Assembly: GCA_902763155.1 (NCBI GenBank)
Contig: CACWQS010000002.1
Span: 137,566 to 201,565, forward strand
Source: an uncultured Pseudomonadota bacterium
Lineage (GTDB): Bacteria > Pseudomonadota > Alphaproteobacteria > RF32 > CAG-239
Reading direction: 5' to 3'
Length of the DNA: 64,000 nt
Made by a program: the position numbers and the translations under genes. Below, piece by piece: positions 1 through 22,537 of the stretch (the first letter of the stretch is position 1; each line of letters starts with the position of its first letter). The notes under the pieces are model-generated. The model saw only the letters and a list, made by a program, of their open reading frames with translations, was not told where the DNA came from and searched no databases.

Positions 1-558
1 AGCTGTTTTTTCGGCGCTATTATTCGGATTATTATAAGCAATATAAATCGCTGCATCTCTTGGGTTTTGAAGTTTCCCTGTTTTTTTAATATTTTCTAAT
101 AATATAACCAGTTTAAGTGTATCAACTGAAATATTTTCATCATCATACTGCAAATTATCAGTACTCTCGAAAAGGTAGCGCTGTATAAATACAACATTGT
201 TATATAATTCAGTCATACTCGTTGAGCAGACAAAGTAGTTTTTATCACCATTGAAAATATATATGTCTACATCAGATTTTATACTTTTTAAGTGTCCGGA
301 TTGTATATAGCCAACAATCTTTTTGAAATAATCCAACGCATACCAAATTGTTACGCGGTCAAGATAATATTCCCGATTAGCAAATTCAAAATATCGAACC
401 AACAACGGCATAATGCTTTGAGAATATTGTTGCCAATCTTGGTTATCACCAAAATTTTTATTAAATATTTTTTGCACCAAGCCATAATAGCTGGATGCGG
501 TCGATTTGCTAAAATTTTTCTGTAACCATTCCCGAAAATCCGATTTTATATCACTCAT
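1..558 (-). CDS. hypothetical protein, partial. Start ATG is at 558-556 and the gene runs off the window start
   Basis: Uninterrupted minus-strand frame translating MSDIKSDFREWLQKNFSKSTASSYYGLVQKIFNKNFGDNQDWQQYSQSIMPLL... to position 1. Absent from the ORF track because there is no in-window stop. The plus-strand ORF 292..525 is its antisense shadow. Confidence 0.5.
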   Translation of the reverse strand, partial: MSDIKSDFREWLQKNFSKSTASSYYGLVQKIFNKNFGDNQDWQQYSQSIMPLLVRYFEFANREYYLDRVTIWYALDYFKKIVGYIQSGHLKSIKSDVDIYIFNGDKNYFVCSTSMTELYNNVVFIQRYLFESTDNLQYDDENISVDTLKLVILLENIKKTGKLQNPRDAAIYIAYNNPNNSAEKTA

Positions 559-870
559 TGGTCAAACTCCTTATGTTTATCTTATTTTATGCTGTTTTAA
601 GAAAAAGTAAAACCGCAGTTTCCATATTTTTTCATTAAATGACATCAACGACAGATAATCGAATTTTATTCTTTAGTTTCACAAAATCCCAAGTCAGTTA
701 AAATTTTTTGCAATAACCAAATCAAATGCGGACATCAACCATACCGTACTCCAACTGCTTAACTGATTGATTTTATTGTATACTTACCACAACGAGTTCG
801 TAAAAATTCCCAAAATGCTTGTTTTTGAAAACATAACATCCGAACTCGGTTAAGTGATTGATTTAAAAAG

Positions 871-896
871 AAAAAACAGGCTTTTGACAGCCTGCT
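871..896 (-). terminator. rho-independent terminator downstream of tRNA-Glu
   Basis: Minus strand reads CAGGCT-GTCAAA-AGCCTG followed by TTTTTT. Confidence 0.55.
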
Positions 897-904
897 GTTT
901 GTGT

Positions 905-979
905 TGGTGATCCCAACGGGATTCGAACCCATATTGCCACCGTGAAAGGGTGATGTCCTAACCATTAGACGATGGGACC
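905..979 (-). tRNA. tRNA-Glu (anticodon UUC), CCA encoded
   Basis: Reverse complement GGTCCCATCGTCTAATGGTTAGGACATCACCCTTTCACGGTGGCAATATGGGTTCGAATCCCGTTGGGATCACCA. 7-bp acceptor stem; anticodon loop CUUUCAC; T-arm GGTTCGAATCC. Confidence 0.85.
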
Positions 980-1163
980 ATTCGTTTTTTTTCAAAAGCA
1001 TATATACTTGTATTTTTTCATAAGGTCAAGTGTTTTTTTCGCCCAAAAATCATTTTTTTACATTTTTTTGCCTCTATTCCGCTCAAAATCCACTTTTTTG
1101 CTTGCGTTTGCGCATATAGCAGAGTATAAACAAGCAAATTTTAAGGCATAAGGAGCAACGCAA

Positions 1164-2246
1164 ATGAAAGTAGATATTTTTGATTTTGAACTCGATAAAG
1201 AACTTATCGCCAAAAAGCCGGCAAACCCGCGAGATACTTCTCGTCTGCTCGACTTGTCTACGCCAACCGAAATCCATGACTTACATTTTTACGATTTACC
1301 GAAATTGCTCCGTGCCGGTGATGTAATGGTATTTAATGATACAAAGGTTATTCCCGCCCGCCTTTACGGTCAACGCGGCGAAGCTCTAGTGGAAGTAACC
1401 CTCTACCACCCCGATGACGGCATCAGTTGGTGGTCGTTCATCAAAAACTCCAAACGCCTGCATAGCGGCGATATTATCCGCTTTTATACCGATGAAATCA
1501 GCGCCGAAAATTCGACATTTTCCGCCGAAGTGGTGCAAAAAGATCAAGAAGACGGCGTGCTGATAAAATTTAATTGCACTGCTGATGATTTAGGCAAACT
1601 CTTAGAACAATACGGCTCAATGCCTCTGCCGCCATATATCAAGCGCGACAAACCTTTGCCGGGGCTGTGGAACCGCTACAACGATAAAGAAGATTATCAA
1701 ACCGTATATGCCAAGCACGAAGGTGCAGTTGCCGCCCCTACCGCCGGGCTGCATTTTACCGATAATCTGCTACAACAAATCGATTCTATGGGAGTTAAAC
1801 GCGTGTTTCTAACTTTGCATGTCGGCGCCGGCACATTTTTACCGGTTAAAACCGACGATACCGAAAGTCACAAAATGCACGCCGAATATGGTGTTATCTC
1901 TGCACAAACTGCCGATATCATCAACCAAGCCAAGCAGGAAGGCCGTCGCATTATCGCCGTTGGCACTACCTCGGTTCGTCTGCTCGAAAGTGCCGCTGAT
2001 GATAAGGGCATATTACATCCGTTTTGCGGCGAAACTGATATTTTCATCACTCCCGGCTACAAATTCAAAATCCTTGACACCATTATTACCAACTTTCACC
2101 TGCCTAAATCGACTTTGTTTATGCTGATTTGCGCTATCGGCGGCTTAGAACGTATGCAAAAAGCCTACCAACATGCCATCAGCGAAAAATATCGTTTTTA
2201 TTCTTATGGCGACAGTTGCATCATTAAATGTATAAATAAAATTTAA
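1164..2246 (+). CDS. queA: S-adenosylmethionine:tRNA ribosyltransferase-isomerase
   Basis: 360 aa. N-terminal MKVDIFDFELDKELIAKKPANPRDTSRLL and LPPYIKR motifs are characteristic of QueA. RBS AAGGAG upstream. Confidence 0.9.
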   Translation: MKVDIFDFELDKELIAKKPANPRDTSRLLDLSTPTEIHDLHFYDLPKLLRAGDVMVFNDTKVIPARLYGQRGEALVEVTLYHPDDGISWWSFIKNSKRLHSGDIIRFYTDEISAENSTFSAEVVQKDQEDGVLIKFNCTADDLGKLLEQYGSMPLPPYIKRDKPLPGLWNRYNDKEDYQTVYAKHEGAVAAPTAGLHFTDNLLQQIDSMGVKRVFLTLHVGAGTFLPVKTDDTESHKMHAEYGVISAQTADIINQAKQEGRRIIAVGTTSVRLLESAADDKGILHPFCGETDIFITPGYKFKILDTIITNFHLPKSTLFMLICAIGGLERMQKAYQHAISEKYRFYSYGDSCIIKCINKI

Positions 2247-7725: not shown

Positions 7726-9198
7726 TTAATCTTTCTTTTTTAAAGTTGGAAAAGCAATCACATCACGAATGGTTTCGGCACCGGTTAAAAGCATAGAAAC
7801 ACGGTCGATTCCCATCCCCATACCGCCAGTCGGAGCAAAACCGTTTTCAAGCGCATTGATAAAATCCTCATCAAGCATTTGCGCCTCATCATCACCATTT
7901 TCACGCGCCGCAACTTCAGCCTCAAAACGCTCTCTTTGTTCAAGCGGATTCGATAATTCGGAATAAGCACATCCGATCTCCATTCCACCCAAATAAGCAT
8001 CAAAATGCTCCACCAAACGCGGATTACTGCGGTGTGTTTTTGCCAGCGGTGAAATATCGCGCGGCATATCCATCACAAATGTTGGTTCAATCAAAGTGTG
8101 TTCCACTTTTTCATCAAACACTTCTTGCACGACTTTACCCCAACAACTGCAAGCACTGGCATCTACTCCTACCGACTTTGCCATTTCTTGAGCTTCTGCC
8201 AAAGTTTGCGCTTTCATTAAATCAATTCCTGTTTCTTCTTTTATCAAATTAACTATCGATTCGCGCTTAAACGGCTTAGATAAATCTATCTCACGTTCGC
8301 CGAACATAATCTTCGGTTCGCCCAGAACTTCGGTTGCCACAAATCGTAACAAATTTTCAATTAAATTTGCCATATCATTATAGTCGGCATACGCCTGATA
8401 CGCTTCCAAGCCGGTAAACTCCGGATTATGATTTTTATCTATACCTTCGTTGCGGAAATTACGCCCTATTTCAAATACACGATCAAAACCGCCGACAATC
8501 AGCTTTTTCAAATACAACTCCGGTGCAATCCGTAAGTATAAATCCATATCTAAAGCATTGTGATGCGTAACAAACGGTTTAGCATTTGCACCACCCATAA
8601 TCGGGTGAAGCATCGGCGTTTCCACTTCCAAAAACTCATTCTGTTCAAAGAACCGCCGCACCGCCGAAGTAATCTGACAACGTTTTTTGAAAATTGCCTT
8701 ACTCTCGTCATTCATGATATAATCAACATAGCGCTGACGATAACGTGCATCAACATCTGTCAGACCATGAAATTTTTCCGGCAACGGTTGCAATGATTTA
8801 GCGATAATATCAAACTTTTCGGCGGCAATCGTCAATTCACCGCGCGGAGTCCGCCGCACAAAACCGCTGACACCGACCATATCTCCCACATCAACACACT
8901 TTAAGCGCTCCATGTCTTCTTCCGGCAAAATCTTTTTGTAGCAAAATGCCTGAATTTTGCCGCTTTTATCTTTAATATCAACAAACATTCCGCTATTACG
9001 CACGGCCATAGCGCGACCGGCAATTGTCACGCGGTCTTCGGTATCAATACCCGCTTCCAAATCCTTATATTTTTCGTGCAATTCTGCCGCATACGCATTC
9101 GGCACAAAACGGTACGGGTACGGGTTATATCCTTTTTCCTGTAAAGCCTTTAACTTGTTTAATCTCGATTCGCGATGGATATTTGTTTCATTTGCCAT
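7726..9198 (-). CDS. lysS: lysyl-tRNA synthetase, class II
   Basis: 490 aa. OB-fold N-domain, class II motifs (FRNEGID..., [14 protein letters not shown]). Confidence 0.92.
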
Positions 9199-9336
9199 AT
9201 TATCTTCCTAACCTAAATTCATTACAATCTTGGCAAACTATAAACCGCTACAAAATATTTTGCAATAAAAATATCTTGCAACACAAACCAAAATATTGTA
9301 GTTATAATTATACATAAACTCGTTGTGGAGGATAAT

Positions 9337-10023
9337 ATGGCAACACAATTTTCTCACTTAAAATATATTTATTTAAGTTTACTTTTTTCTTTAAGCATCA
9401 CTTTTCCGGCTTTTGCCGATGTTTGTTTTTTACCTGACGGCACATGTATGTCCGGTATAAAGATGGAAAAGCAAACGCTTGGTTCAGATGATGATTGTTC
9501 CGGCTATGGTGCTAAGAAAAACGGGAAAGGTTGGGATTGTTCGGATACCTGCCGTGCTCACGGGAATTTGTATTATAATTGCGTCGAAAAAAAGTGCACT
9601 TCTGGCTACACTCCGGGAATTAGCAGTTGTGAAGATGGTTATGTTTTTGATAGCGACAATTCTTATTCAGGCGACTTACTCTGCGGTAGGTGCTTAGAAG
9701 ATAAGTGCCCTAATGGTTCACACTTAAGCCAAGAATGCGAAACTGCCGGATATCTTCCAGTCCAAACCCAATACTACGTAGAAGAATACCCTTGCTATAT
9801 GTGTGTAAATGATAATTGTGATACCGGCTTTAGCAAAAAATGTAATTCTGAAACAGAATTGGCGCTAAAAGTTCAACACACCCAATACGGTTCTATATGC
9901 TACAAATGTTGTAATAATGTTTGTAGTAGAGGTTCTTTAGACGAGCCGATTTGTGATAGCGGAAAAACTTCACAAGAAGTTTCACGCACTGGTTGCGATA
10001 AACCATGCTATGAGTGCCGCTAA
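9337..10023 (+). CDS. secreted cysteine-repeat protein
   Basis: Signal peptide MATQFSHLKYIYLSLLFSLSITFPAFA. The mature part holds about 5 tandem repeats of about 25 aa, C-x-[EN]-[DK]-x-C-x2-G-x4-6-C-[ED]-x-G-Y, with over 30 Cys. RBS GGAGG. Confidence 0.6.
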   Translation: MATQFSHLKYIYLSLLFSLSITFPAFADVCFLPDGTCMSGIKMEKQTLGSDDDCSGYGAKKNGKGWDCSDTCRAHGNLYYNCVEKKCTSGYTPGISSCEDGYVFDSDNSYSGDLLCGRCLEDKCPNGSHLSQECETAGYLPVQTQYYVEEYPCYMCVNDNCDTGFSKKCNSETELALKVQHTQYGSICYKCCNNVCSRGSLDEPICDSGKTSQEVSRTGCDKPCYECR

Positions 10024-10187
10024 AATCGCCAATTTTTAAGCAAAAAAGTTCATTTTTATACATACCTCAAAGACTGTTATTGTGGTATGTATATTTTTTT
10101 ATAAAAAAATCTTGAATTTTGTCAAAAAATAAGTTAATGTAAATTAAAATTCGAATTTTTTAGATAATAAATTAAAACAATCAGATT

Positions 10188-10628
10188 ATGGAAAAAGCAA
10201 ATCGTTTTTGCGCCGTGCTATTGGTAATAGTACTCGCATTGTTGGCTGTCTGCATCTGGCAGGCTCCCAGTGGGACCTTCTCCGTAGCAAATTGTTTTTG
10301 CTACTATTTCATGGCAATAGTCCTCATATTATTTCCTATGAGTTTGAATACCGAAAGCAAAGGTGAACGTAATCTTCCAATCTCCTTTCTAATGGCTTTC
10401 ATAAGCATTGAGATTGGCATCTTTTTTAGTGTTGAGTTCTGGTGCTTACCGATTCTGGCAGCTGTATTACCAACTCTCTATTTTATGAGGTATTCTTGGA
10501 TACACGCACATAAGCTAAACACAGTAGCTTTTGCAAACAACCTGTTCTATTTGCTACTCCTGAGCTATGTTTTTTGCCTTTTGGTAAAAGTAATAATAGA
10601 ACCGACATGGCTCCATTTCCTCGGATAA
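10188..10628 (+). CDS. small polytopic membrane protein
   Basis: 146 aa, about 4 TM helices. Immediately downstream of the Cys-repeat gene. Confidence 0.5.
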   Translation: MEKANRFCAVLLVIVLALLAVCIWQAPSGTFSVANCFCYYFMAIVLILFPMSLNTESKGERNLPISFLMAFISIEIGIFFSVEFWCLPILAAVLPTLYFMRYSWIHAHKLNTVAFANNLFYLLLLSYVFCLLVKVIIEPTWLHFLG

Positions 10629-10640
10629 ATTATTAAAAAA

Positions 10641-10688
10641 CAAAAAAAGAAAGTCGGCGACTCGCTTGAGAGTTCCCGACTTTTCTAT
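10641..10688. terminator. bidirectional rho-independent terminator
   Basis: AGTCGG...CCGACT hairpin with an A-run 5' and a T-run 3'. Lies between convergent genes. Confidence 0.55.
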
Positions 10689-10705
10689 TTATTGCAAAAA
10701 TATAT

Positions 10706-11215
10706 TTATTTTACAGTTAAAATATCCAATAACTTTTGATTGGCTTCTTCAATGCTGCAATTACTATACACCGAAACTTCGCTTGCCAAGCGGCTAACTG
10801 CTTGCTCATAAATCTGGCGCTCGCTATAACTCTGTTCCGCCAAATTATCATTACGATGCAAATCACGCACCACTTCGGCAATCGCCACCGGATTACCGGA
10901 ATTGATTTTGTTTTCATATTCTTGAGCGCGCCGCGACCACATCACCTTTTTGATTTTTGCCTTACCTTGCAAAGTTTCAAAAGCCTCATTCATTGTTTTT
11001 TCATCAGAAATCTTGCGCAGGCCGACATGCGAAATTTTTGCGGTAGGAATACGCAATGTCATTTTATCCTTATCAAAGTTAACAACCAACATCTCCAATT
11101 CCGAACCGGCAATATTTTGTTTGGTAATATCGGCAACTTTGCCCACACCATGGGTAGGATAAACCACATATTCTCCGGCATTGAACGTCAGCGACGGCAA
11201 TTTTTTAATACTCAT
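10706..11215 (-). CDS. cdnL: CarD/CdnL family transcription regulator (RNAP-interacting)
   Basis: The MSIKKLPSLTFNAGEYVVYPTHGVGKV N-terminus is CarD_CdnL_TRCF-like. The track ORF starts 87 nt upstream, but the M at 11215 is the likely start. Confidence 0.75.
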   Translation of the reverse strand: MSIKKLPSLTFNAGEYVVYPTHGVGKVADITKQNIAGSELEMLVVNFDKDKMTLRIPTAKISHVGLRKISDEKTMNEAFETLQGKAKIKKVMWSRRAQEYENKINSGNPVAIAEVVRDLHRNDNLAEQSYSERQIYEQAVSRLASEVSVYSNCSIEEANQKLLDILTVK

Positions 11216-11360
11216 ATTTGCTCCTAAAAAACATAAATTATTCACATAAGACAAGGTTGAATATATCACATTTTTCGACCTAAATCCAGAGGAAAAATGC
11301 AAAAAAAAATAAAATATTTTTTGCTTGCATTTTAATTCTGCCGTTTTAATATAATCATTG

Positions 11361-11517
11361 TCGGCAGGTGTTCTGCCGATGGAGTATCCTAACTCCTTAA
11401 GAGAAAAAATCTCCGTCTAAGGGGAGCCGGCGAAATATATTGAATACGCCGGACTGCTCTCTTACAGTTAGGAACTCCCCTTGCTTTGCATTAAAGCAAG
11501 GTTTTTGTTTAACTTAA
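11361..11517 (+). ncRNA. candidate structured small RNA / cis-regulatory leader
   Basis: Sigma70-like promoter: -35 TTGCAT, -10 TATAAT at 11350-11355. Small hairpin CGGCAG-GTGTT-CTGCCG. A long-range stem pairs GGAGTATCCTAACTCCTTAAGAGA (11381-11404) with TCTCTTACAGTTAGGAACTCC (11458-11478) and encloses two internal hairpins. Ends in terminator hairpin CCTTGC...GCAAGG + TTTTT (11479-11516). Confidence 0.3.
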
Positions 11518-11536
11518 CAAAAGAGGAGTTCTGAAA

Positions 11537-11767
11537 ATGATAAATAATACAATAACATTTGATGAAAATACTATGCATGAAATCGGCAAAGGATTGTGGC
11601 TGGCACGCCAGGAAAAGCATTTGTTTATATATCAGGTAGCAAAACGCTCTCGTGTGCCGATAGATTTAATTGACACAATGGAATTGGGGAAAGCTATAGA
11701 AGACAATGCTCTGATTAAATTACTTAAATTTTACGGCAAAAAAATACGGATTGTAATTGAGGATTGA
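11537..11767 (+). CDS. small XRE-family HTH protein
   Basis: 76 aa. HTH segment LARQEKHLFIYQVAKRSRVPIDLIDTMELGK. RBS GAGGAG. Confidence 0.55.
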   Translation: MINNTITFDENTMHEIGKGLWLARQEKHLFIYQVAKRSRVPIDLIDTMELGKAIEDNALIKLLKFYGKKIRIVIED

Positions 11768-12041
11768 TTTTACTTATAATATTTATACTATTATTTAATA
11801 AGAAAATAATTGATAGCTATGAGCCATAGATGTTATAAAAATCATAGAGTGTATTTCTGTATTTGAAATGCACTCTATTTTTTTCACGTCATACTGACAC
11901 TGAATGACAATGAAGTGGAAGTATCCAGTAATGCCTATAGCATTACATCGTTTCAATGAAACTTTTAATTAAATTTTGTATTAACCACCGAAAACCGTGC
12001 GCTAAACCGTGCGGTTTTCGCATTTTAAAAGGAAAAATAAA

Positions 12042-12533
12042 ATGAGTAATTTATATAAATTCAATCAAGACACGCAAATTGATGAATTTGGTGTCGACCA
12101 TTCCAATTTCTCGCTACGAGATGAAATTGAGTATAACACTATGCGGGCTAATCAATCTATGCCCAAACAGCAAAATCCGGTAAGACAAATTGTTGGCGCA
12201 GTTGCGGATATGACGCGAAATTATTTCGATATGAAACGTGATAACACTGTTGGTGCCGATGACTATTTTCATTGTAAAGCCAATTATGAAGCCGCAAATC
12301 ATGGACCATGGGGCGAATTAACAGCACAAATTGTTGGTGATACTAAAGAAGGATTTGACTATTTAAAAAATAGGTTTTACAAAGGATTTAGCTATCCGGA
12401 TGCTTTATCTGATTATTTGCACGACAAAGATGTTAATCTACAAGGGCGACAATTATCAAAGAATCCGTTGTACTCTAACTCAATAGAAGCTTGTCAATAT
12501 CAACGAGTAAAAGATATAAATGAGAAATATTAA
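12042..12533 (+). CDS. serum amyloid A (SAA)-like domain protein
   Basis: Core VADMTRNYFDMKRDNTVGADDYFHCKANYEAANHGPWGELTAQIVGDTKE aligns by eye to the vertebrate SAA core [54 protein letters not shown]. The C-terminus ends ...EKY, as vertebrate SAA does. No signal peptide. Start chosen at MSNLYK (RBS AAGGAAAA). Confidence 0.6.
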   Translation: MSNLYKFNQDTQIDEFGVDHSNFSLRDEIEYNTMRANQSMPKQQNPVRQIVGAVADMTRNYFDMKRDNTVGADDYFHCKANYEAANHGPWGELTAQIVGDTKEGFDYLKNRFYKGFSYPDALSDYLHDKDVNLQGRQLSKNPLYSNSIEACQYQRVKDINEKY

Positions 12534-12801
12534 AAACTTTATGATAACGCTATTCGTTTTTTACCTTAAGGTATGCACGTTTATCGGTTTTATGTTGGTA
12601 ACACTATGCCTTATCGGCGGTATTTATTTGTTTGTTACAGATTCTGATCTTCTGGCTGTAGATTCATGTTTAGATGCCGGAAAAGTCTGGGATTATGAAC
12701 AAAAAATCTGCCGCGATGACTGCTTGACGTGGAATGAAAAAATCGGTTGCGTGCCGATAACAAAAGAAAATATCGAAAAGAAAGCCAAAGGATTATTGTA
12801 A
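12520..12801 (+). CDS. small membrane protein with C-terminal DSCLDxG Cys-rich tail
   Basis: 93 aa, two TM helices, then DSCLDAGKVWDYEQKICRDDCLTWNEKIGC. Overlaps the SAA-like gene by 14 nt. Paralog of 51801..52211. Confidence 0.5.
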   Translation: MRNIKNFMITLFVFYLKVCTFIGFMLVTLCLIGGIYLFVTDSDLLAVDSCLDAGKVWDYEQKICRDDCLTWNEKIGCVPITKENIEKKAKGLL

Positions 12802-12808
12802 ACGGAAA

Positions 12809-12839
12809 GGGCAAGAGCGAAAAACTCTTGCCTTTTTTT
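12809..12839 (+). terminator. rho-independent terminator
   Basis: GGCAAGAG-CGAAAAA-CTCTTGCC followed by TTTTTTT. Confidence 0.7.
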
Positions 12840-12886
12840 ATGTAATTTGTTACATAATATTCAGATAAAAAATAGGGCTTAGAAAT

Positions 12887-13351
12887 ATGGAAAAGTTTTT
12901 CAAACATTCGGTTAAGGCAATTATTATCAAAAACGGTAAACTGTTAACCGTCAGCGTAGATTATGGGCGCGGGAGGTATTGCAAGTTGCCGGGCGGCGGT
13001 CAAGAATGGGGCGAAACCATGTCAGAAACCATCATCCGCGAGTGCAAGGAAGAATTGAACCTTGATATTAAGCCTTTACGTTTGGTTTTGGCGCGAGATT
13101 ATATCGCCAAGAATCATCAGCAACCGTATGATTTAGATTGTTTTCATTTAGCCGAATTGATGTTTGAGTGTGAAGCGGCTGACTTTTCAACTCTCGGCAA
13201 CGGCTCTGAACCGGATAGTAACGAGCAAAAAATCAAGTGGATAGATTTAAATGATTTGGAAAGCTCTGATTTTTACCCGAAGGCAATAATCCCTTATTTA
13301 AAAAATCTCAAAAACATTAAAGAAACGATCGTTTTGGGTGATGTGAATTAG
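12887..13351 (+). CDS. NUDIX hydrolase
   Basis: Nudix box LPGGGQEWGETMSETIIRECKEELNL. Confidence 0.8.
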   Translation: MEKFFKHSVKAIIIKNGKLLTVSVDYGRGRYCKLPGGGQEWGETMSETIIRECKEELNLDIKPLRLVLARDYIAKNHQQPYDLDCFHLAELMFECEAADFSTLGNGSEPDSNEQKIKWIDLNDLESSDFYPKAIIPYLKNLKNIKETIVLGDVN

Positions 13352-13517
13352 TCAATGGCGAAAATAAATATCATTGCTCCTTACATCGGCATCATCTTCG
13401 CACTATAAGCCGTAAAAGTTGTTTTTTAATTTTCCTATCTATCTATTAAATTCTTGACTTTAGCAAATATCTGATTATACTAAAAATTGACAAATTTATT
13501 ATCTAAATATAAACATT

Positions 13518-16260: not shown

Positions 16261-18495
16261 CTATCTGCTACCATAACCGCCGTTTTTGAAATTTCGCTCC
16301 AAGCGGCGTTGCTCTTTTTGTTCTCTTTTCTTTTCGTGGCGAGATTTTTTGCCTGATTTATCTTTTTTGCTCAGCTTTTCTTTACCGGCGTTTTTGCCTA
16401 TAGTGATAATCTTGCCGGCTTCGCGCTTACCGTAATTATGCTTTTTACCGAATTCTTTCTGACTTTCCTCAGCTTTGCGCTGATGGTTTGATTGCACCCG
16501 CGGGGTTTCTTCTTCCAACAGCAAGGCTTTTTCAAGCATATCGTCTTGCTTGGTCATCAGCCGTTCGCCGGTTTTGCTCAAAAGGGCTATAACCACATCG
16601 GCACGGTTGGTTTCCTGATACAGTCCGTTCATAGATTTCAGCACAATTTGTCCGCTGCCCGGAGTGCGTTCCAGCGCCAAAAAGCATTGGTCTTCAATGT
16701 TTATACGGCGGATAACGTTTGAATATCCCGGCTTTAGCTCAATTATATCACCGTTGGCAAAATTATGAAATTCAATGCGTTTGTTGTCTTGCAGGGCGCG
16801 GGCGCTGTTTTCGCGCTGGTCAAAGTTGCCGTGCAGGCCGATAACCTGCAGCTTTTTGCCTTTGCGCGCCATAAGTTTGAAGGCATTTTTGCAGTGTTTC
16901 ATCACATTGCTGATAGATTGTCTTAAGCCGCCGGCTTTGTTGTGGCCGCTCATCTGGCGTTTTTTAACAAAATGACACATCTTGAGCAGGTCGGCAACCT
17001 TGTGTTTTTCCAGCTCGGCTTTGCTCAGTTCGTTTAGGAAAATGGTAGCACCGCAACGTGCAGCTCCGCGATAGGTTTCCACCGTTTGCCAAAAGCGCAC
17101 ACCGCCGATAAGGCGTTGACAGCCGTCTATCACGCATTTGCGACCCAAAGGAAAATGCCCTTCGTCGCCGCGTATCATATGCACCAAACCGGAAACCTGG
17201 TCGCCAGACTCTTTTTCATAGCCTTCGCCAAATGCCCCGCTAACGAAAAGATTTTGCTTATTAAAGTCCACATCTTGGTTATATTTTTCGGCATCAGGTT
17301 TTATAATATTATTATAGCTCCACACCACATCTTTGAAATCTTCGGCGCGATACATTTTCACATTTTGCTCGCGCAAAGCATTCAAGTTCTTTTCCGAAGT
17401 TTTTTGCAAATGGCCGCGTTTATCAATATAGAATATTTCATTACATTCCTGCCAAGCACGAAAAGATTCGCGCATCTGCCAGCCGTCGATAAACACTTTT
17501 TTGCCTTGTTCGGCACAAACCACCAAAGATGGCAGCCAGTTTTCAATGCTGCGCGAAATGAGCGGGGTGATGATGCGCGCTTCTTTGTTGTAATTAAAAA
17601 TTTCTCTTACGGCATTACAACTGTCTTCAAAACTAAACTCTTCTTCGGCGTTTTCGTTGCCGTAATCATCAAATTCAGCAAGGACTTCTTCCATTCCGGT
17701 AGAAGTAGAATCAGCCCCGATATGGGTAATATCGTGCTTAGAAAGGAACTTTTGCGCTTCCGGATTATCGCCGGAAAGGCCGGTGAGAGAAGCTGATACC
17801 CGATTATCGCCGGGGTTCAAATATCCCACGCCAGACGGGCTGGAAAGAATGTATCCGTATGAGCCGACGGTGGGGTGCGAAACCGGCAGCGAGCCCACTT
17901 TCAGCTCTTTGATTTTTTCGTCTTTATACGGAGCCAAAATTTTGAACTGCGGAAAAGAGCCTTTCGGCAAATGATATTGCTTTAAGAGAGAATAGAATCT
18001 TTTTTGGGTATATTCGCTACCGAACAGCGGCGGCATTTGCAGCTTATGTTCGTGGGCATACAGGGTCATATAAATGAGCGAATCCAAATGGTCGGCATGG
18101 CAATGGGTAATAAAAATGGCGTCAAGCGGATATTTGGCTTTTTCTCCGTCCGGCGAGGGCAAAAACATTCTGAAATCGGGCATATAAGAATCATATTGGG
18201 AATTTTTTTCAATATATTCTTGGGCTTGTTCTTCGTTTTGCTCTTCGTTTTTGCCGGAAGAAAGTTTGACTCCGGCATCTATCATAATTCGACGTGTTTT
18301 ACCGTTTTCTTCATACTCAAACACTTGGCAATTTGCACCAATCCCGTCATTATTGCCGGCCGGAACCCCCCCCCACAAGCCATAATCTCGTTTGTTCGTT
18401 TTGCTGTGCCATGTCATTAACTCCGCTAATATATTTTTCACGTTTGCTTCATTATACACAAATATTGACAAAATGCAAACATTTTTATTCCGCAT
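16261..18495 (-). CDS. rnj: ribonuclease J-like metallo-beta-lactamase/beta-CASP nuclease with large insertions and a Lys-rich C-terminal tail
   Basis: MBL motifs (IDAGVK; ITHCHADHLDS; PVSHPTVGSYGY). DSTST and ISRSIENW segments resemble beta-CASP. HGNFDQRE and NGDIIEL resemble the RNase J C-terminal region. At 744 aa it is about 190 aa longer than typical RNase J. The C-terminal 60 aa are K/R/E-rich. Confidence 0.55.
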   Translation of the reverse strand: MRNKNVCILSIFVYNEANVKNILAELMTWHSKTNKRDYGLWGGVPAGNNDGIGANCQVFEYEENGKTRRIMIDAGVKLSSGKNEEQNEEQAQEYIEKNSQYDSYMPDFRMFLPSPDGEKAKYPLDAIFITHCHADHLDSLIYMTLYAHEHKLQMPPLFGSEYTQKRFYSLLKQYHLPKGSFPQFKILAPYKDEKIKELKVGSLPVSHPTVGSYGYILSSPSGVGYLNPGDNRVSASLTGLSGDNPEAQKFLSKHDITHIGADSTSTGMEEVLAEFDDYGNENAEEEFSFEDSCNAVREIFNYNKEARIITPLISRSIENWLPSLVVCAEQGKKVFIDGWQMRESFRAWQECNEIFYIDKRGHLQKTSEKNLNALREQNVKMYRAEDFKDVVWSYNNIIKPDAEKYNQDVDFNKQNLFVSGAFGEGYEKESGDQVSGLVHMIRGDEGHFPLGRKCVIDGCQRLIGGVRFWQTVETYRGAARCGATIFLNELSKAELEKHKVADLLKMCHFVKKRQMSGHNKAGGLRQSISNVMKHCKNAFKLMARKGKKLQVIGLHGNFDQRENSARALQDNKRIEFHNFANGDIIELKPGYSNVIRRINIEDQCFLALERTPGSGQIVLKSMNGLYQETNRADVVIALLSKTGERLMTKQDDMLEKALLLEEETPRVQSNHQRKAEESQKEFGKKHNYGKREAGKIITIGKNAGKEKLSKKDKSGKKSRHEKKREQKEQRRLERNFKNGGYGSR

Positions 18496-18555
18496 ATTGA
18501 ATTTTTTTAATCTGCAAATACATTGTAAATAAATTTTTCATGTCAGGAGAAAAAA

Positions 18556-19044
18556 ATGTTCAAAAATTCTTATTTAAATTTTGTTTTCAGCCTTATTGTT
18601 GTCCTCATCACCGGTGCACTATGCAGTTGGTTTAATCGCGTCGGTATGGCATCTTTCTATGAGCAAATTGAAAAATCACCACTCACACCTCCAAATATCG
18701 TTTTTCCGATTGTTTGGACTATCCTCTACATTTTACTGGTTTTGGCGTTTGATATTATCCTTAATATCCATGAAAAACCTATAAAACCGGCTGTTTGGTT
18801 GTTTATTGGTAATATGATTTTGCAAATTTTGTGGTGTTGGGCATTTTTCAACAACGGACAATTTTTGATAGCTCTTATTATTTTAATGATACTCGATATT
18901 GCCACCGCCATTTTAGTAAGCCAATTTTACAAACTCGATAAGGCGGCCGGCTGGCTTTTGGCGCCATATATGCTCTGGGTATTGTTTGCCACATATCTGA
19001 ATTGGGAAGTTGTCGCACTAAACGGTAATGTTTTTACATACTAA
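18556..19044 (+). CDS. tspO: tryptophan-rich sensory protein TspO/MBR family
   Basis: 162 aa, 5 TM helices, Trp-rich (WTILYILL..WCWAFFN..WLLAPYMLWVLFATYLNWEVVALN). Confidence 0.8.
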   Translation: MFKNSYLNFVFSLIVVLITGALCSWFNRVGMASFYEQIEKSPLTPPNIVFPIVWTILYILLVLAFDIILNIHEKPIKPAVWLFIGNMILQILWCWAFFNNGQFLIALIILMILDIATAILVSQFYKLDKAAGWLLAPYMLWVLFATYLNWEVVALNGNVFTY

Positions 19045-19871
19045 AAAGCATAGCGCAAAGCAAACGAGCATAAATCCTTGCTACCGCATGCACAACCGGC
19101 AATAGCATCATCTTCCAAGAACGGCGTCGGCTGAAATCTGTCATTAGGCCGCGCCACATTTAACAGATATTGCGGTCTCGGTTGCACTAAAATCCACCGT
19201 CCGCCGGCATCTTGCACCCGTTGCGGCTTAGCTTCCGCAACCTGTCTGTCGATGTCTTCCAATGCCTTATCATACCCGTCATCACCGACAACACCGAGTG
19301 CCACCGCCTGCAAACCTTGCTCTTCATTTCCCCAATTCATCTGTGCCAATGCCACACAAATTTTATGCGATAACCCTTGATACGAAAGCTTAAAAGTCGG
19401 CGTTGCATCTTCCGTCGGCAAAGACGGCATAATCACTATTTTTCCGCCAAAAGCATGACGCAGTTCTCCATTTCGCTTAACCATAGATGGTGAAATTACC
19501 CCCGACTGCACCAAATACTGCGGTTCCATCTGCAATTTTAGCCCCTTTGCGGCATAGGCCTGTCGAATATTATCCACTAATTGTGAAATTTGCGCCGTTG
19601 TCACATTGAGCCGGTTTTGGTCGCGAACATGGACATAGGCTGTTTGTATCAGCTTAGCTCCATAAATAAGCACTGCGCACACCAAAAAAATCAACACTAT
19701 TTTTCCCGCCGTTTTCCAACGCTTAACTTCAATATCGTTTTCTTCACGGTTGGCGCGATCCCAGTAAGCCCGCATCCGCTCCAAGCTCTCCATTGCCTGT
19801 TGCTCTTTAGATTTATGTTCCTCTGCGCTTTCTTCAACCATAAATCTTACCCTGTAATACGCCCGTGGCAA
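19041..19871 (-). CDS. membrane-anchored periplasmic protein of unknown function, overlaps the secA 3' end
   Basis: One TM helix ([16 protein letters not shown]), then about 200 aa with a C-terminal CACGSKDLC. The first 10 aa are Arg-rich, so the true start may be the internal MVEES. Confidence 0.45.
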
Positions 19872-22537
19872 TGTTTAAACTTTTTACCGCTACCGCACGG
19901 ACATAAATCATTACGTGCCACGTTGGCAAACATCGATTCATTAGGCTGTTTCGCCGGTTGTGTCGCATCATCGCCAACTACTGCACCATCATGCACTGCC
20001 GACATCTTGCGATTCTGTTCCTTATCCATAGCCTGCTGCATTTTCGCCTGCGAATTATCTTGAATCAACGTATGACAACTGACTACCGTTACTCGCTCTT
20101 TTAAAACATCAAGCAAATCCGAAAACATATTGAATGCTTCTTTTTTGTATTCGTTAAGCGGATCTTTCTGCCCGTAGGCCCGTAAACGAATGGTGTGGCG
20201 CATCAAATCAAGCGTAGCAATATGCTCTTTCCACAGTTGGTCTAAAACCTGCAACAAAATGTATTTTTGTGCCATTTTTTTCACGTTCTCCGGTAAGGCA
20301 GCATTACGCTCTTCCAAGCGATTATCTACTTCCTGCAAAATACGTTCTTTTAAGCCCTCGCTGGTCATATCCGGCTCGTTGCACCAATTAGACAGCGGTA
20401 AAACAAAACCGGTTGTTTGTTGCAAATCTTGTTTCAAGCCATCAATATTCCATTCTTCAGCCGAAGTCCCATAAGGAATATGCGCATCAATAATTCCGCC
20501 TAAATATTCATCACGCATATCTTTCAAAGTTTCCGACAAATCGTCCTCTTCTAAAATTTCGCGGCGTTCCTCGTAAATAATTTTACGCTGGTCATTCATC
20601 ACATTGTCGTACTTTAAAATATCTTTACGAGCATCAAAATGGCTTTCTTCCACGCGTTTTTGTGCTTTTTCCAAAGCCTTGGTAATCCACGGATGCACCA
20701 GCGCCTCTCCTTCCGGCAAGCCTAAACGGTGTAACACGTTAGACATCTTATCCGAACCAAAGATGCGCATTAAATCATCTTGCATTGAAAGGAAGAACTT
20801 GGATGTCCCCGGATCGCCCTGACGCCCCGAACGTCCGCGCAACTGATTGTCGATTCGTCGACTTTCGTGACGTTCTGTTCCCAAAATATACAAACCTCCG
20901 GCCGCCAAAACTTTTTCCTTATCTGCCGCCACTTCGGCTTCTATCTTTTTCTTCAATTCGGCAATTTGCTCCGGTGTTTCATCTCCTTTGAGAAGCTCTT
21001 TCAGCTTCATATCCGGATTACCGCCGAGCTGAATATCCGTACCGCGTCCGGCCATGTTGGTAGCAATCGTTACGGCACCGGAAACACCGGCTTGCGCCAC
21101 AATTATCGCCTCGCGCTCATGATAACGGGCATTCAGCACTTCGAACTTTATATCCGGTGCGGCCTTGCGCAATAATTCCGCCACAATCTCCGACTTTTCT
21201 ACCGAAGTCGTACCCACCAAAACCGGCTGTCCGCGCTTATGGCAATCAATAATCGTGTTAATAATCGCCCGATATTTTTCATCTTCGGTCCGATATACTT
21301 CATCCTGCAGATCTTGACGTTGCACCGGCTTATTGGTCGGAATTTCTACGCACATCAAGTTATAAATGTCGTTAAATTCGGCTTCTTCGGTCATCGCCGT
21401 TCCGGTCATACCCGCTAGCTTCGGATAAAGCCGGAAATAATTTTGGAAGGTAATCGATGCCAAGGTTTGGTTCTCCGACTGAATCTGCACCCCCTCTTTA
21501 GCCTCTAACGCTTGATGCAAACCGTCGCTGAAGCGGCGTCCTTCCATAATACGACCGGTAAATTCATCAACAATCACCACTTTGCCGTCTTTTACAATAT
21601 AGTCCACATCACGCTGAAACATCTTGTGCGCCCGCAAAGCATTGTTCACGTGCTGCACCAAATTAACATTACCGATATCATAAAGCGAACCTTCCTTAAT
21701 CAATCCGGCTTCGTGAAGCAAACTTTCCACATGTTCCATACCGGTTTCAGTCAAAGTAATGTTTTTAAACTTTTCGTCTTTTTCATAATCTGCTTCCGTC
21801 AAATGGCTGATAAGTTTAGAAACCGTGATATATGTCATAGACGAGTCTTCCGCTTGACCGGAAATAATCAGCGGTGTTCTGGCTTCATCAATCAAAATGG
21901 AATCTACTTCATCAACAATGGCAAAATTAAAATCACGCTGAACTTTTTCTTCCAAGCTGTATTTCATGTTGTCGCGCAAATAATCAAACCCCAGTTCATT
22001 ATTGGTGCCGTAAACAATATCGGCGGCGTACGCTTGCTTACGCTCCATATCGTTTTTACCATGCACAATATAATCTACCGTCAAACCCAAAAAACGGTAA
22101 ATTTTTCCCATCCACTCGGCATCGCGCTGTGCCAAATAGTCATTAACCGTAACTACGTGCACACCTTTGCCTTCAAGCGCATTCAAATACGCCGCCAGCG
22201 TTGCCACCAAAGTTTTACCTTCACCGGTCTTCATTTCGGCAATCATGCCCTTATGCAAAACTATACCGCCGATAAGTTGCACATCATAATGGCGTTGTCC
22301 CATCACTCGCTTTGCCGCTTCACGCACCGTGGCAAAAGCCTCCGGCAAAATATCATCCAACGATTCGCCTTTTTTCAGGCGTTCGCGAAATTCGTCGGTC
22401 TTAGCTCGCAGTTCTTCGTCGGAAAGTTTAATAAAATCAGGCTCTAGAGCATTGATTTGATTAACGATTTTATATTGTTTTTTTACAAAACGATCATTGG
22501 CACTGCCAAAAATCTTACGCGCGATTTTCCCTAACAT
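19847..22537 (-). CDS. secA: preprotein translocase ATPase SecA
   Basis: 896 aa. DEAD-like motor motifs and the C-terminal zinc-binding motif [14 protein letters not shown]. Confidence 0.95.

Follow-up and report, generated by a model that had tools for sequence, protein, structure and literature searches.

Tandem arrays of short, Cys-rich modules are a common feature of extracellular proteins. In the Ephrin_rec_like, GCC2_GCC3 and TNFR repeats (PF07699, PF23091), modules of about 35-48 amino acids (aa) opening with C-P-x-G-[YT] form short, disulphide-pinned β-hairpins that are stacked in tandem into rods. Small all-β, disulphide-rich extracellular hairpin modules also make up the VWC domains, the C4 domain of von Willebrand factor (VWF) and, presumably, the granulin-type stacks. 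As far as gene organization is concerned, an exported protein followed by a small protein with 4-5 transmembrane (TM) segments is the layout of bacteriocin and pore-forming-colicin loci, in which a fast-diverging partner and recombination are also met. Finally, bacterial repeats may be displayed on the surface as passengers of type Va autotransporters; classical passengers are β-helices with few or closely spaced Cys residues, since disulphides hinder translocation (PMC1533851). The locus described here lies in a 64,000-nucleotide (nt) stretch of contig CACWQS010000002.1 (assembly GCA_902763155.1) from an uncultured alphaproteobacterium of the gut or rumen, referred to below as the window. It consists of a gene for a 228-aa Cys-rich protein, predicted to be exported and to be built largely of tandem β-hairpin repeats, and of a downstream gene (tm4) for a 146-aa membrane protein, the two being flanked by lysS and cdnL (coordinates in Table 1). 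The repeat defines a family that is rare, has not been described before and occurs in bacteria of the gut and rumen.

In the Cys-rich protein, four canonical copies of the repeat follow each other back to back with a period of 36-37 aa, and are preceded by a variant hairpin module (aa 54-86). A repeat hidden Markov model (HMM), started from the units and refined by iteration over the family, converged to a 36-position model, with the consensus CPSGYSLSKTSCSAGYTAVETSGYSGGSVCYKCVND. Because this first repeat-HMM test was circular, the model was rebuilt without the window protein and its close clade, on 95 repeats that all came from distant relatives. Using this clade-excluded model, the whole protein scored 54.2 bits, compared with a maximum of 4.9 bits for 500 composition-preserving shuffles of the mature sequence, and the periodicity therefore holds. 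When single units were compared pairwise, only some pairs exceeded Cys-rich shuffles, and it is for this reason the profile evidence that carries the repeat claim.

The initial annotation, which was made from the sequence alone, had proposed about five tandem 25-aa repeats with an internal C-x4-C pattern. Five units are indeed obtained if the variant module is counted, but their period is considerably longer, and the C-x4-C pattern, although present, marks the junction between consecutive repeats. Each unit contains a four-Cys framework, C-x7-10-C-x13-18-C-x2-C, embedded in the family consensus CPxGY-x6-C-xxGY-x6-8-YSG-x3-C-G/Y-x-C; all four Cys columns, and exactly these four, are invariant in 45 diverse repeats. 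A knottin-like nature, which had also been suggested, is not compatible with this framework: a knottin (inhibitor cystine knot) would have six Cys residues in about 30 aa, and not four in 36-37.

The open reading frame (ORF) of the Cys-rich protein is preceded, 4 nt ahead of the ATG at 9337, by a GGAGGA Shine-Dalgarno sequence, and this start was therefore favoured over the GTG at 9325. The N-terminus, with one Lys, a hydrophobic stretch and A-F-A followed by D-V, appears to be a typical substrate of signal peptidase I, in agreement with the clean signal peptide recognized at the outset. The residues P24, A25, A27 and D28 of the junction are invariant among the close homologues, and the cleavage junction, AxA followed by [DER][VI]CFLP, recurs in many family members. 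No lipobox ([LVI][ASTVI][GAS]C) was found at the end of the signal peptide, where the residues leading to the first Cys are F-A-D-V-C; because D and V occupy positions -2 and -1 relative to that Cys, and because the family junction fits signal peptidase I, a bacterial lipoprotein was rejected. The protein contains 24 Cys (10.5%; over 30 had originally been counted), 16 Tyr and 4 His, the aromatic residues amounting to 24 (about 10%). It matched no model in Pfam, NCBIfam, PADLOC or PHROGs, even with E up to 1, and the statement that it does not resemble any housekeeping family thus stands. Pairwise dN/dS values are 0.11-0.18 and the homologues keep all 24 Cys, which shows that the gene is translated and under purifying selection; a spurious ORF was rejected on these grounds.

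A model of the protein was calculated with AlphaFold2 from a 12-sequence alignment. Its mean predicted local distance difference test score (pLDDT) was 81, with values above 90 for most of residues 60-228, and it shows five long β-hairpins, one for each module (Table 1). A low-confidence linker (pLDDT below 50 at residues 43-50) connects the conserved mature N-terminus to the body. In one subfamily, this N-terminus (aa 28-37 in the window protein, positions 9418-9447, right after the AxA site) reads [DER][VI]CFLPxGxC, while in another it reads [KG][IV][YH]WLPDY, and the motifs are kept across proteins (P0006 to P0035) that differ in length and domains. It could serve as a structural cap, or as a docking or sorting tag.

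No solved counterpart of the predicted fold was found. A Foldseek search against 350,542 chains of the Protein Data Bank (PDB) gave nothing significant, the best match being VWF C4 (6fwn, E = 0.94, TM-score 0.14-0.29); a search of BFVD with the model gave no match, and sequence searches of the PDB gave none with either the whole-protein profile or the repeat profile, the latter even at E up to 10. The likeness to VWF C4 is therefore limited to the general architecture, as the structural match is not significant and no PDB chain is similar in sequence.

The window repeats resemble ephrin/TNFR-type repeats in kind, namely in their opening motif, module length and predicted tandem hairpins. A bacterial example of ephrin/TNFR-type repeats was found in the related locus L026 (positions 122-1708, minus strand), whose lysS is 87% identical to that of the window: here, a secreted 528-aa protein with 56 Cys and Ephrin_rec_like/TNFR-like repeats is encoded divergently upstream of lysS, in the same orientation as the window gene and with one small ORF in between. 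The window repeats, however, differ in the spacing and number of their four Cys, and no ephrin-type profile matched the window protein (E up to 1) or nine of its relatives (E up to 0.1). Homology is also unsupported by hhalign, which gave a probability of 9.5% for the repeat against the L026 protein.

A word-indexed search of 5.8 billion clusters returned four close homologues only, with identities of 70-99% and with 24 of the 24 Cys invariant, while an exhaustive phmmer search of 1.84 billion representatives returned 35 proteins at E up to 1e-3. A profile search added P0039, a 765-aa paralogue from the same assembly as the homologous locus L089, so that a genome nearly identical to that of the window contains at least two members. 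Lengths within the family vary from 111 to 1,315 aa, and as many as seven significant repeats occur in a single member; no Pfam or NCBIfam model covers the repeats in any of the members scanned. When 17 other proteins were analysed with Pfam and NCBIfam, only accessory domains were found in 16 of them, which are family members; the remaining one was the L026 protein, with its Ephrin_rec_like/TNFR match.

One relative is a 1,704-aa protein encoded directly downstream of lysS in a related gut alphaproteobacterium (L064, positions 7814-12928). Its six repeat matches and its 76 Cys all fall within the first 1,100 residues, that is, in the passenger, and an autotransporter β-domain (PF03797, E = 4.7e-16) lies C-terminal to them. 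That the same 36-aa repeat fills a type Va passenger implies that the repeat is displayed at the surface and has an adhesin-like function. Unlike type Va autotransporters, the window protein has no PF03797 β-barrel and ends right after repeat 4. In other members, the repeats are combined with BspA-type leucine-rich repeats (LRRs) (P0036), with a weak Lcl_C domain (P0037) or with a weak pectate-lyase-like adhesive domain (P0017), and P0026 and P0028 have N-termini which, examined by eye, are pilin-like and hydrophobic. The contigs of P0033 and P0026 bear outer-membrane β-barrel and RND efflux genes, and their hosts are therefore Gram-negative. In large surface proteins of Gram-negative bacteria from the animal gut, the family repeat thus appears to be the building block of the extracellular parts, and the 228-aa protein would be the minimal soluble form of the family, composed of a head and four repeats with no anchor or catalytic domain. 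The adhesin-like character proposed for it earlier fits this context, in which the repeat is found in an autotransporter passenger and in a protein with BspA-type LRRs. From these surface-protein contexts, we give roughly an even chance to the reading that the Cys-rich protein is an exported, disulphide-stabilized binding or scaffold module, either secreted or associated with the envelope.

In this reading, the Cys residues would be paired with each other rather than engaged with a metal. The number of Cys residues in the mature protein is even in 18 of the 21 family members with a recognizable AxA cleavage site, and one of the three exceptions, P0007, appears to be truncated at its C-terminus, its sequence ending in the middle of a repeat. 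The two Cys beyond the framework of four per repeat, C192 and C220, are both invariant in 12 sequences and lie in neighbouring repeats, as would be expected for an inter-repeat bridge. A search for natural variants that have lost Cys residues showed that full-length repeats nearly always retain all four; in the lineage of P0011 and P0014, the second and fourth Cys of one repeat were apparently lost together (as judged by eye), which hints at first-to-third and second-to-fourth pairing. Considering the even counts, the invariant C192/C220 pair and the regular β-structure rich in aromatic residues, disulphides are preferred over metal, and about 12 of them are favoured for the protein on the basis of Cys parity and co-conservation. 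In its export signal, its even number of conserved Cys and its tandem modules with fixed Cys positions, the protein appears to belong among the disulphide-rich extracellular repeat proteins.

A metallothionein-like protein had been mentioned as one of the alternatives that would refute the initial proposal. Metallothioneins are small and usually cytoplasmic, with Cys residues clustered as CxC, CC or CxxC, few aromatics and little regular structure in the absence of metal. The window protein has a signal peptide, aromatic residues at 24 of its 228 positions and five confidently predicted long β-hairpins, and there is no Pfam or NCBIfam metallothionein match; a protein of this type was accordingly rejected. 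In a broader form of the same idea, the protein would be a periplasmic metal-binding or redox-buffering protein, like a metallothionein or a zinc knuckle, whose Cys, including the four CxxC motifs, bind metal. A Cys content of 10.5% and a CxxC closing every repeat are in line with this possibility, as is the likeness that we take to exist between CxxC-bearing β-hairpins and zinc-ribbon knuckles; moreover, the host gut is probably largely anoxic, and the envelope may be less oxidizing. Each repeat, however, has a single CxxC knuckle, and its other two Cys, 7-10 residues apart, do not form a second one; there is no match to a metal-binding family and only 4 His are present; and the same repeats occur in a cell-surface autotransporter passenger. 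Together with the Cys parity, the invariant extra pair and the hairpin structure, unlike that of metallothioneins, these observations make metal binding very improbable.

The second gene of the locus encodes a polytopic protein of 146 aa, as initially noted, and its ORF has no recognizable Shine-Dalgarno sequence. Hydropathy indicates four to five hydrophobic segments, and an AlphaFold2 model of low confidence (pLDDT 57), built from two near-identical sequences, has five helices, so that five appear likelier than the four originally assigned. No family match was found in Pfam, NCBIfam, PADLOC or PHROGs; an 18-bit match to subunit E of a Na+/H+ antiporter, for which the model cut-off is 190 bits, was spurious. 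Thiol oxidoreductases of the DsbB/VKOR type have two conserved Cys pairs, one of them a CxxC, in the periplasmic loops of a 4-5-TM protein. This candidate was rejected, because only C36 is invariant in the five copies of the membrane protein and there is neither a CxxC nor a Pfam match.

In 5.8 billion clusters, the membrane protein has a single homologue, that of L089 (99% identity), but syntenic copies, 33-45% identical, were found by translating the loci in L001, L082/83 and L085. Where complete, these copies do not differ in length, and 19 residues are invariant, among them E75 and those of an FW-LP motif. Adjacency of the Cys-rich gene and the membrane gene is therefore seen in five loci and in two genomic contexts, i.e. 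next to lysS (window, L001, L082/83 and L089) and in L085, whose Cys-rich protein shares about 50% identity and whose pair adjoins the start of a ppdK-like gene instead of lysS. The pair has thus stayed together in a different context, which makes a functional coupling of the two proteins plausible.

The two genes had been described as a pair closed by a bidirectional terminator. They are adjacent, but a separate terminator-like hairpin (10057-10093) lies directly after the Cys-rich gene, and the pair is therefore not a simple operon. This hairpin folds with -14 kcal/mol (z = -2.4) and has undergone compensatory changes, C to T with G to A in L089 and T to C with A to G in L083. It is followed by a promoter-like region with a conserved TTGA-N6-TCAA palindrome, which we take to resemble an FNR/CRP-type site. 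The palindrome is not enriched in the window (5 found vs 2.4 expected), and no claim of a regulon is made. A similar element, TTGAC-N7-GTCAA, is present in L085 upstream of its Cys-rich gene. The bidirectional terminator downstream of the membrane gene is supported as a structure: its fold is strong on both strands (z = -4.4 on the plus and -3.7 on the minus strand, with 0 of 200 shuffles as stable), and it is kept in L001 and L083, in which, examined by eye, the differences in the inner stem occur on both sides and preserve pairing. The membrane gene thus appears to be co-inherited with the Cys-rich gene and separately transcribed.

On the other side of the Cys-rich gene, the 138-nt region that separates it from the divergent lysS is 98% identical to that of L001 and 85% to that of L083, more than the Cys-rich coding sequence itself (82% and 75%, respectively). 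It contains TTGCAA direct repeats that may be operator sites. A 17-nt inverted repeat with arms at 9192-9208 and 9327-9343 (94% complementary) is explained by the fact that the two divergent genes share the initiation region GGA[AG]GATAAT-ATG-GCAA. The intergenic regions gave no Rfam match.

The same observations must be weighed against the possibility that the two genes are functionally unrelated neighbours, the Cys-rich protein having the binding or scaffold role proposed above and the membrane protein being an independent, poorly constrained orphan in a rearrangement-prone gap beside lysS. The covarying terminator after the first gene and the conserved promoter-like region before the second would be expected in this case, and the two genes evolve at very different rates (see below); in addition, the upstream flank of lysS is a synteny breakpoint across the clade, and the longer family members have no such neighbour. 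However, the two genes are still neighbours where identity of the Cys-rich proteins has fallen to 50%, and also in L085, beside a different upstream gene, and the membrane ORF keeps its length, its helices and its 19 invariant residues. On balance, mere neighbourhood seems somewhat unlikely.

The evolution of the locus was analysed by comparison with its closest relatives. Nucleotide identity between the window and L001 is 88% for lysS, 98% for the lysS-cys intergenic region, 82% for the Cys-rich gene, 78% for the cys-tm4 intergenic region, 54% for the membrane gene, 70% for the tm4-cdnL intergenic region and 92% for cdnL. In the same comparison, lysS has a dN of 0.015 and the Cys-rich gene one of 0.104, which is about seven times as high. 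For the membrane gene, dN is 0.47-0.56, corresponding to about 5-fold the value of the Cys-rich gene and about 35-fold the values of lysS and cdnL. The dS of the membrane gene is saturated and was not interpreted, and no allelic replacement is claimed. L089 (GCA_045605045.1) is 99-100% identical to the window over 4.7 kb, except for positions 9900-10100 (7712-7912 in L089), where identity falls to 72-77%. This patch spans the last repeat and the terminator, and L089 has there an L001-like allele; it looks like a recombination mosaic. A smaller dip (88%) is observed at 9100-9199, the 5' end of lysS. The Cys-rich gene thus appears to evolve faster than its housekeeping neighbours and to be shuffled by recombination among strains.

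This pattern could also be read in terms of a bacteriocin-like toxin-immunity pair, in which the Cys-rich protein is a stable antibacterial or anti-eukaryote effector and the membrane protein protects the producer. A small exported protein next to a small polytopic membrane protein is the classic bacteriocin or pore-forming-colicin immunity layout; the adjacency is kept in L085; the membrane protein is only 40-45% identical where the flanking genes are 97-99% identical; and diversifying or frequency-dependent selection would be in line with the mosaic 3' end of the Cys-rich gene. Unlike known loci of this kind, that of the window shows no homology to a toxin or immunity family in Pfam, NCBIfam, PADLOC or PHROGs and no recognizable killing domain, and it is not plasmid- or phage-borne, no plasmid or phage record having been matched. 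Nor do the two proteins co-vary (72-82% identity for the Cys-rich protein vs 40-45% for the putative immunity protein), and they belong to separate transcription units. The low dN/dS of the Cys-rich gene, well below 1, and the use of the repeat as a generic block of large surface proteins devoid of such a neighbour also speak against a toxin, which we regard as improbable.

If the preferred reading of a binding or scaffold module is correct, the 228-aa product would leave the cytoplasm by the Sec route and be cleaved behind AFA by signal peptidase I. In the oxidizing envelope, it would fold into a rod or strip of five β-hairpin modules, one variant and four canonical, with two disulphides pinning each module; with the addition of the C192-C220 bridge and of a loop closed by C30-C37 at the N-terminus, the total would be about 12. 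The result would be a protease-resistant, adhesin-like binding or scaffold module facing the host or other microbes, for which the membrane protein might act as a membrane partner, in protection or as an export helper.

Several points weigh against this reading. The pTM of the AlphaFold2 model is 0.52, which leaves the arrangement between modules uncertain; the disulphide bonding and pairing, the final location and the binding function are all properties that we infer. All of the family matches are unnamed and without Pfam domains, and no member has an experimental or homology-based function. The Cys-rich protein carries no recognizable signal for crossing the outer membrane, and may simply stay in the periplasm. 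As to the autotransporter route, disulphide-rich passengers are generally poor autotransporter substrates (PMC1533851), and because they translocate poorly the architecture of the L064 protein is itself unusual. Finally, the pairing with the membrane gene may be narrow-clade synteny rather than function, since the longer and more distant members P0039, P0010 and P0012 have no tm4-like neighbour and since both a terminator and a promoter-like region intervene between the Cys-rich gene and the membrane gene.

In a more speculative version, the repeat would represent a new disulphide-pinned fold with no solved counterpart, deployed at the surface even by the autotransporter route, the two genes would be a diversifying effector or bacteriocin module, and the conserved N-terminus ([DER][VI]CFLPxGxC or YWLPDY) would be a sorting or docking tag; this whole combination is, in our opinion, doubtful. 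The preferred reading, if true, would add a new structural repeat, with no PDB counterpart and no Pfam or NCBIfam model, to those of bacterial surface and secreted proteins, and this from uncultured Alphaproteobacteria of the gut and rumen, a group in which next to nothing is known of host-facing proteins. The L064 passenger, having the same repeat, would provide a natural test of the export of disulphide-rich passengers. A mature protein of about 200 aa with about 12 disulphides would, moreover, be of a size suited to expression and structure determination, so that the family is experimentally tractable. The locus has no bearing on core pathways and its importance is moderate, as the function is a proposed one.

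Table 1. Features of the Cys-rich/membrane gene locus and of the neighbouring strain-variable segment of the window (aa, amino acids; E values refer to the repeat HMM unless stated otherwise; hairpins are those of the AlphaFold2 model).
Feature	Position	Strand	Evidence and remarks
CDS of the 228-aa exported Cys-rich hairpin-repeat protein	9337..10023	+	ORF; 24 Cys; conserved in 4 close homologues
Signal peptide, aa 1-27	9337..9417	+	Predicted signal peptidase I cleavage between AFA and DV, seen in the sequence
N-terminal head, aa 28-86	9418..9594	+	DVCFLPDGTC loop (C30, C37), low-confidence linker, variant hairpin module (C54, C68, C72, C82); conservation and model; hairpin 66-74/77-84
Repeat 1, aa 87-122, CTSGYTPGISSCEDGYVFDSDNSYSGDLLCGRCLED	9595..9702	+	E = 1.2e-14; clade-excluded HMM E = 4.8e-15; hairpin 103-111/114-121
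Repeat 2, aa 124-159	9706..9813	+	E = 1.5e-15; clade-excluded HMM E = 4e-7; hairpin 139-148/151-158
Repeat 3, aa 161-194, extra Cys C192	9817..9918	+	E = 2.3e-10; clade-excluded HMM E = 2.4e-4; hairpin 174-181/187-193
Repeat 4, aa 196-227, extra Cys C220	9922..10017	+	E = 3.3e-9; clade-excluded HMM, partial match, E = 1.6e-5; hairpin 212-217/223-227
Divergent lysS/Cys-rich intergenic region holding promoters	9199..9336	.	GGAGGA Shine-Dalgarno (9327-9332) and TTGCAA direct repeats
Intrinsic-terminator-like hairpin ATACATACC...GGTATGTAT and T-run, right after the Cys-rich gene	10057..10100	+	Inverted repeat (hairpin 10057-10093)
Palindrome TTGAATTTTGTCAA (TTGA-N6-TCAA), conserved, within the promoter-like region ahead of the membrane gene	10112..10125	.	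Present in the window, L001, L083 and L085
CDS of the 146-aa polytopic inner-membrane protein (4-5 TM), fast-evolving orphan	10188..10628	+	ORF
Bidirectional terminator-like hairpin between the membrane gene (+) and cdnL (-)	10649..10685	.	A-run upstream, T-run downstream
Small HTH-like ORF in the 2.1-kb segment	11537-11767		
174-aa protein with a Serum amyloid A (SAA) domain in the 2.1-kb segment	12009-12533		PF00277, E = 2e-17, above cut-off
93-aa membrane protein with a 4-Cys tail	12520-12801		Overlaps the SAA-domain ORF
154-aa ORF in the 2.1-kb segment	12887-13351		

The locus is flanked by two minus-strand genes, namely lysS, which is of class II (NF001756, 665 bits), and a gene of the CarD/CdnL type (PF02559 and PF21095). 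The sequences most similar to this lysS (94-95% identity) come from metagenome-assembled genomes (MAGs) of uncultured Alphaproteobacteria from cattle rumen and from roe deer, yak and human (Hadza) gut, probably of the RF32 lineage. To judge from their isolate prefix, the RGIG genomes appear to derive from a catalogue of the ruminant gut (PMC8199421). A symbiont, to whose relatives the initial annotation had referred, is not indicated by these data, because the closest genomes are gut and rumen MAGs of free-living type. In about 70 related loci, lysS retains its downstream polysaccharide-deacetylase partner, while its upstream side is a synteny breakpoint with many different neighbours among species, and in none of these loci does it bear cdnL, the Cys-rich gene or the membrane gene. 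The order lysS, Cys-rich gene, membrane gene, cdnL appears therefore to be specific to a narrow clade, comprising the window, L001, L082/83 and L089. The pair was originally described as inserted between lysS and cdnL; both genes do flank it, but since none of the about 70 relatives has cdnL beside lysS, it is not an insertion into an ancestral lysS-cdnL junction. The locus has no nearby tRNA gene and no flanking direct repeats as signatures of insertion, and a search for mobile elements by tblastn against plasmids and phages gave no match.

Next to cdnL, a 2.1-kb segment (11321-13447) is absent from the otherwise collinear L001. It contains the last four ORFs of Table 1, and a bacterial SAA-domain protein of a gut organism is thus located on a strain-variable island. 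Further downstream, the annotation of L001 (11150-16699) includes, besides TspO, a pilin gene of the Bundlin/PilS type; the large proteins encoded on either side of it have no Pfam domains. By collinearity, this pilin region corresponds to positions ~16261-22537 of the window, about 6-12 kb downstream of the Cys-rich/membrane pair, and may be a type IVb pilus-like cluster.

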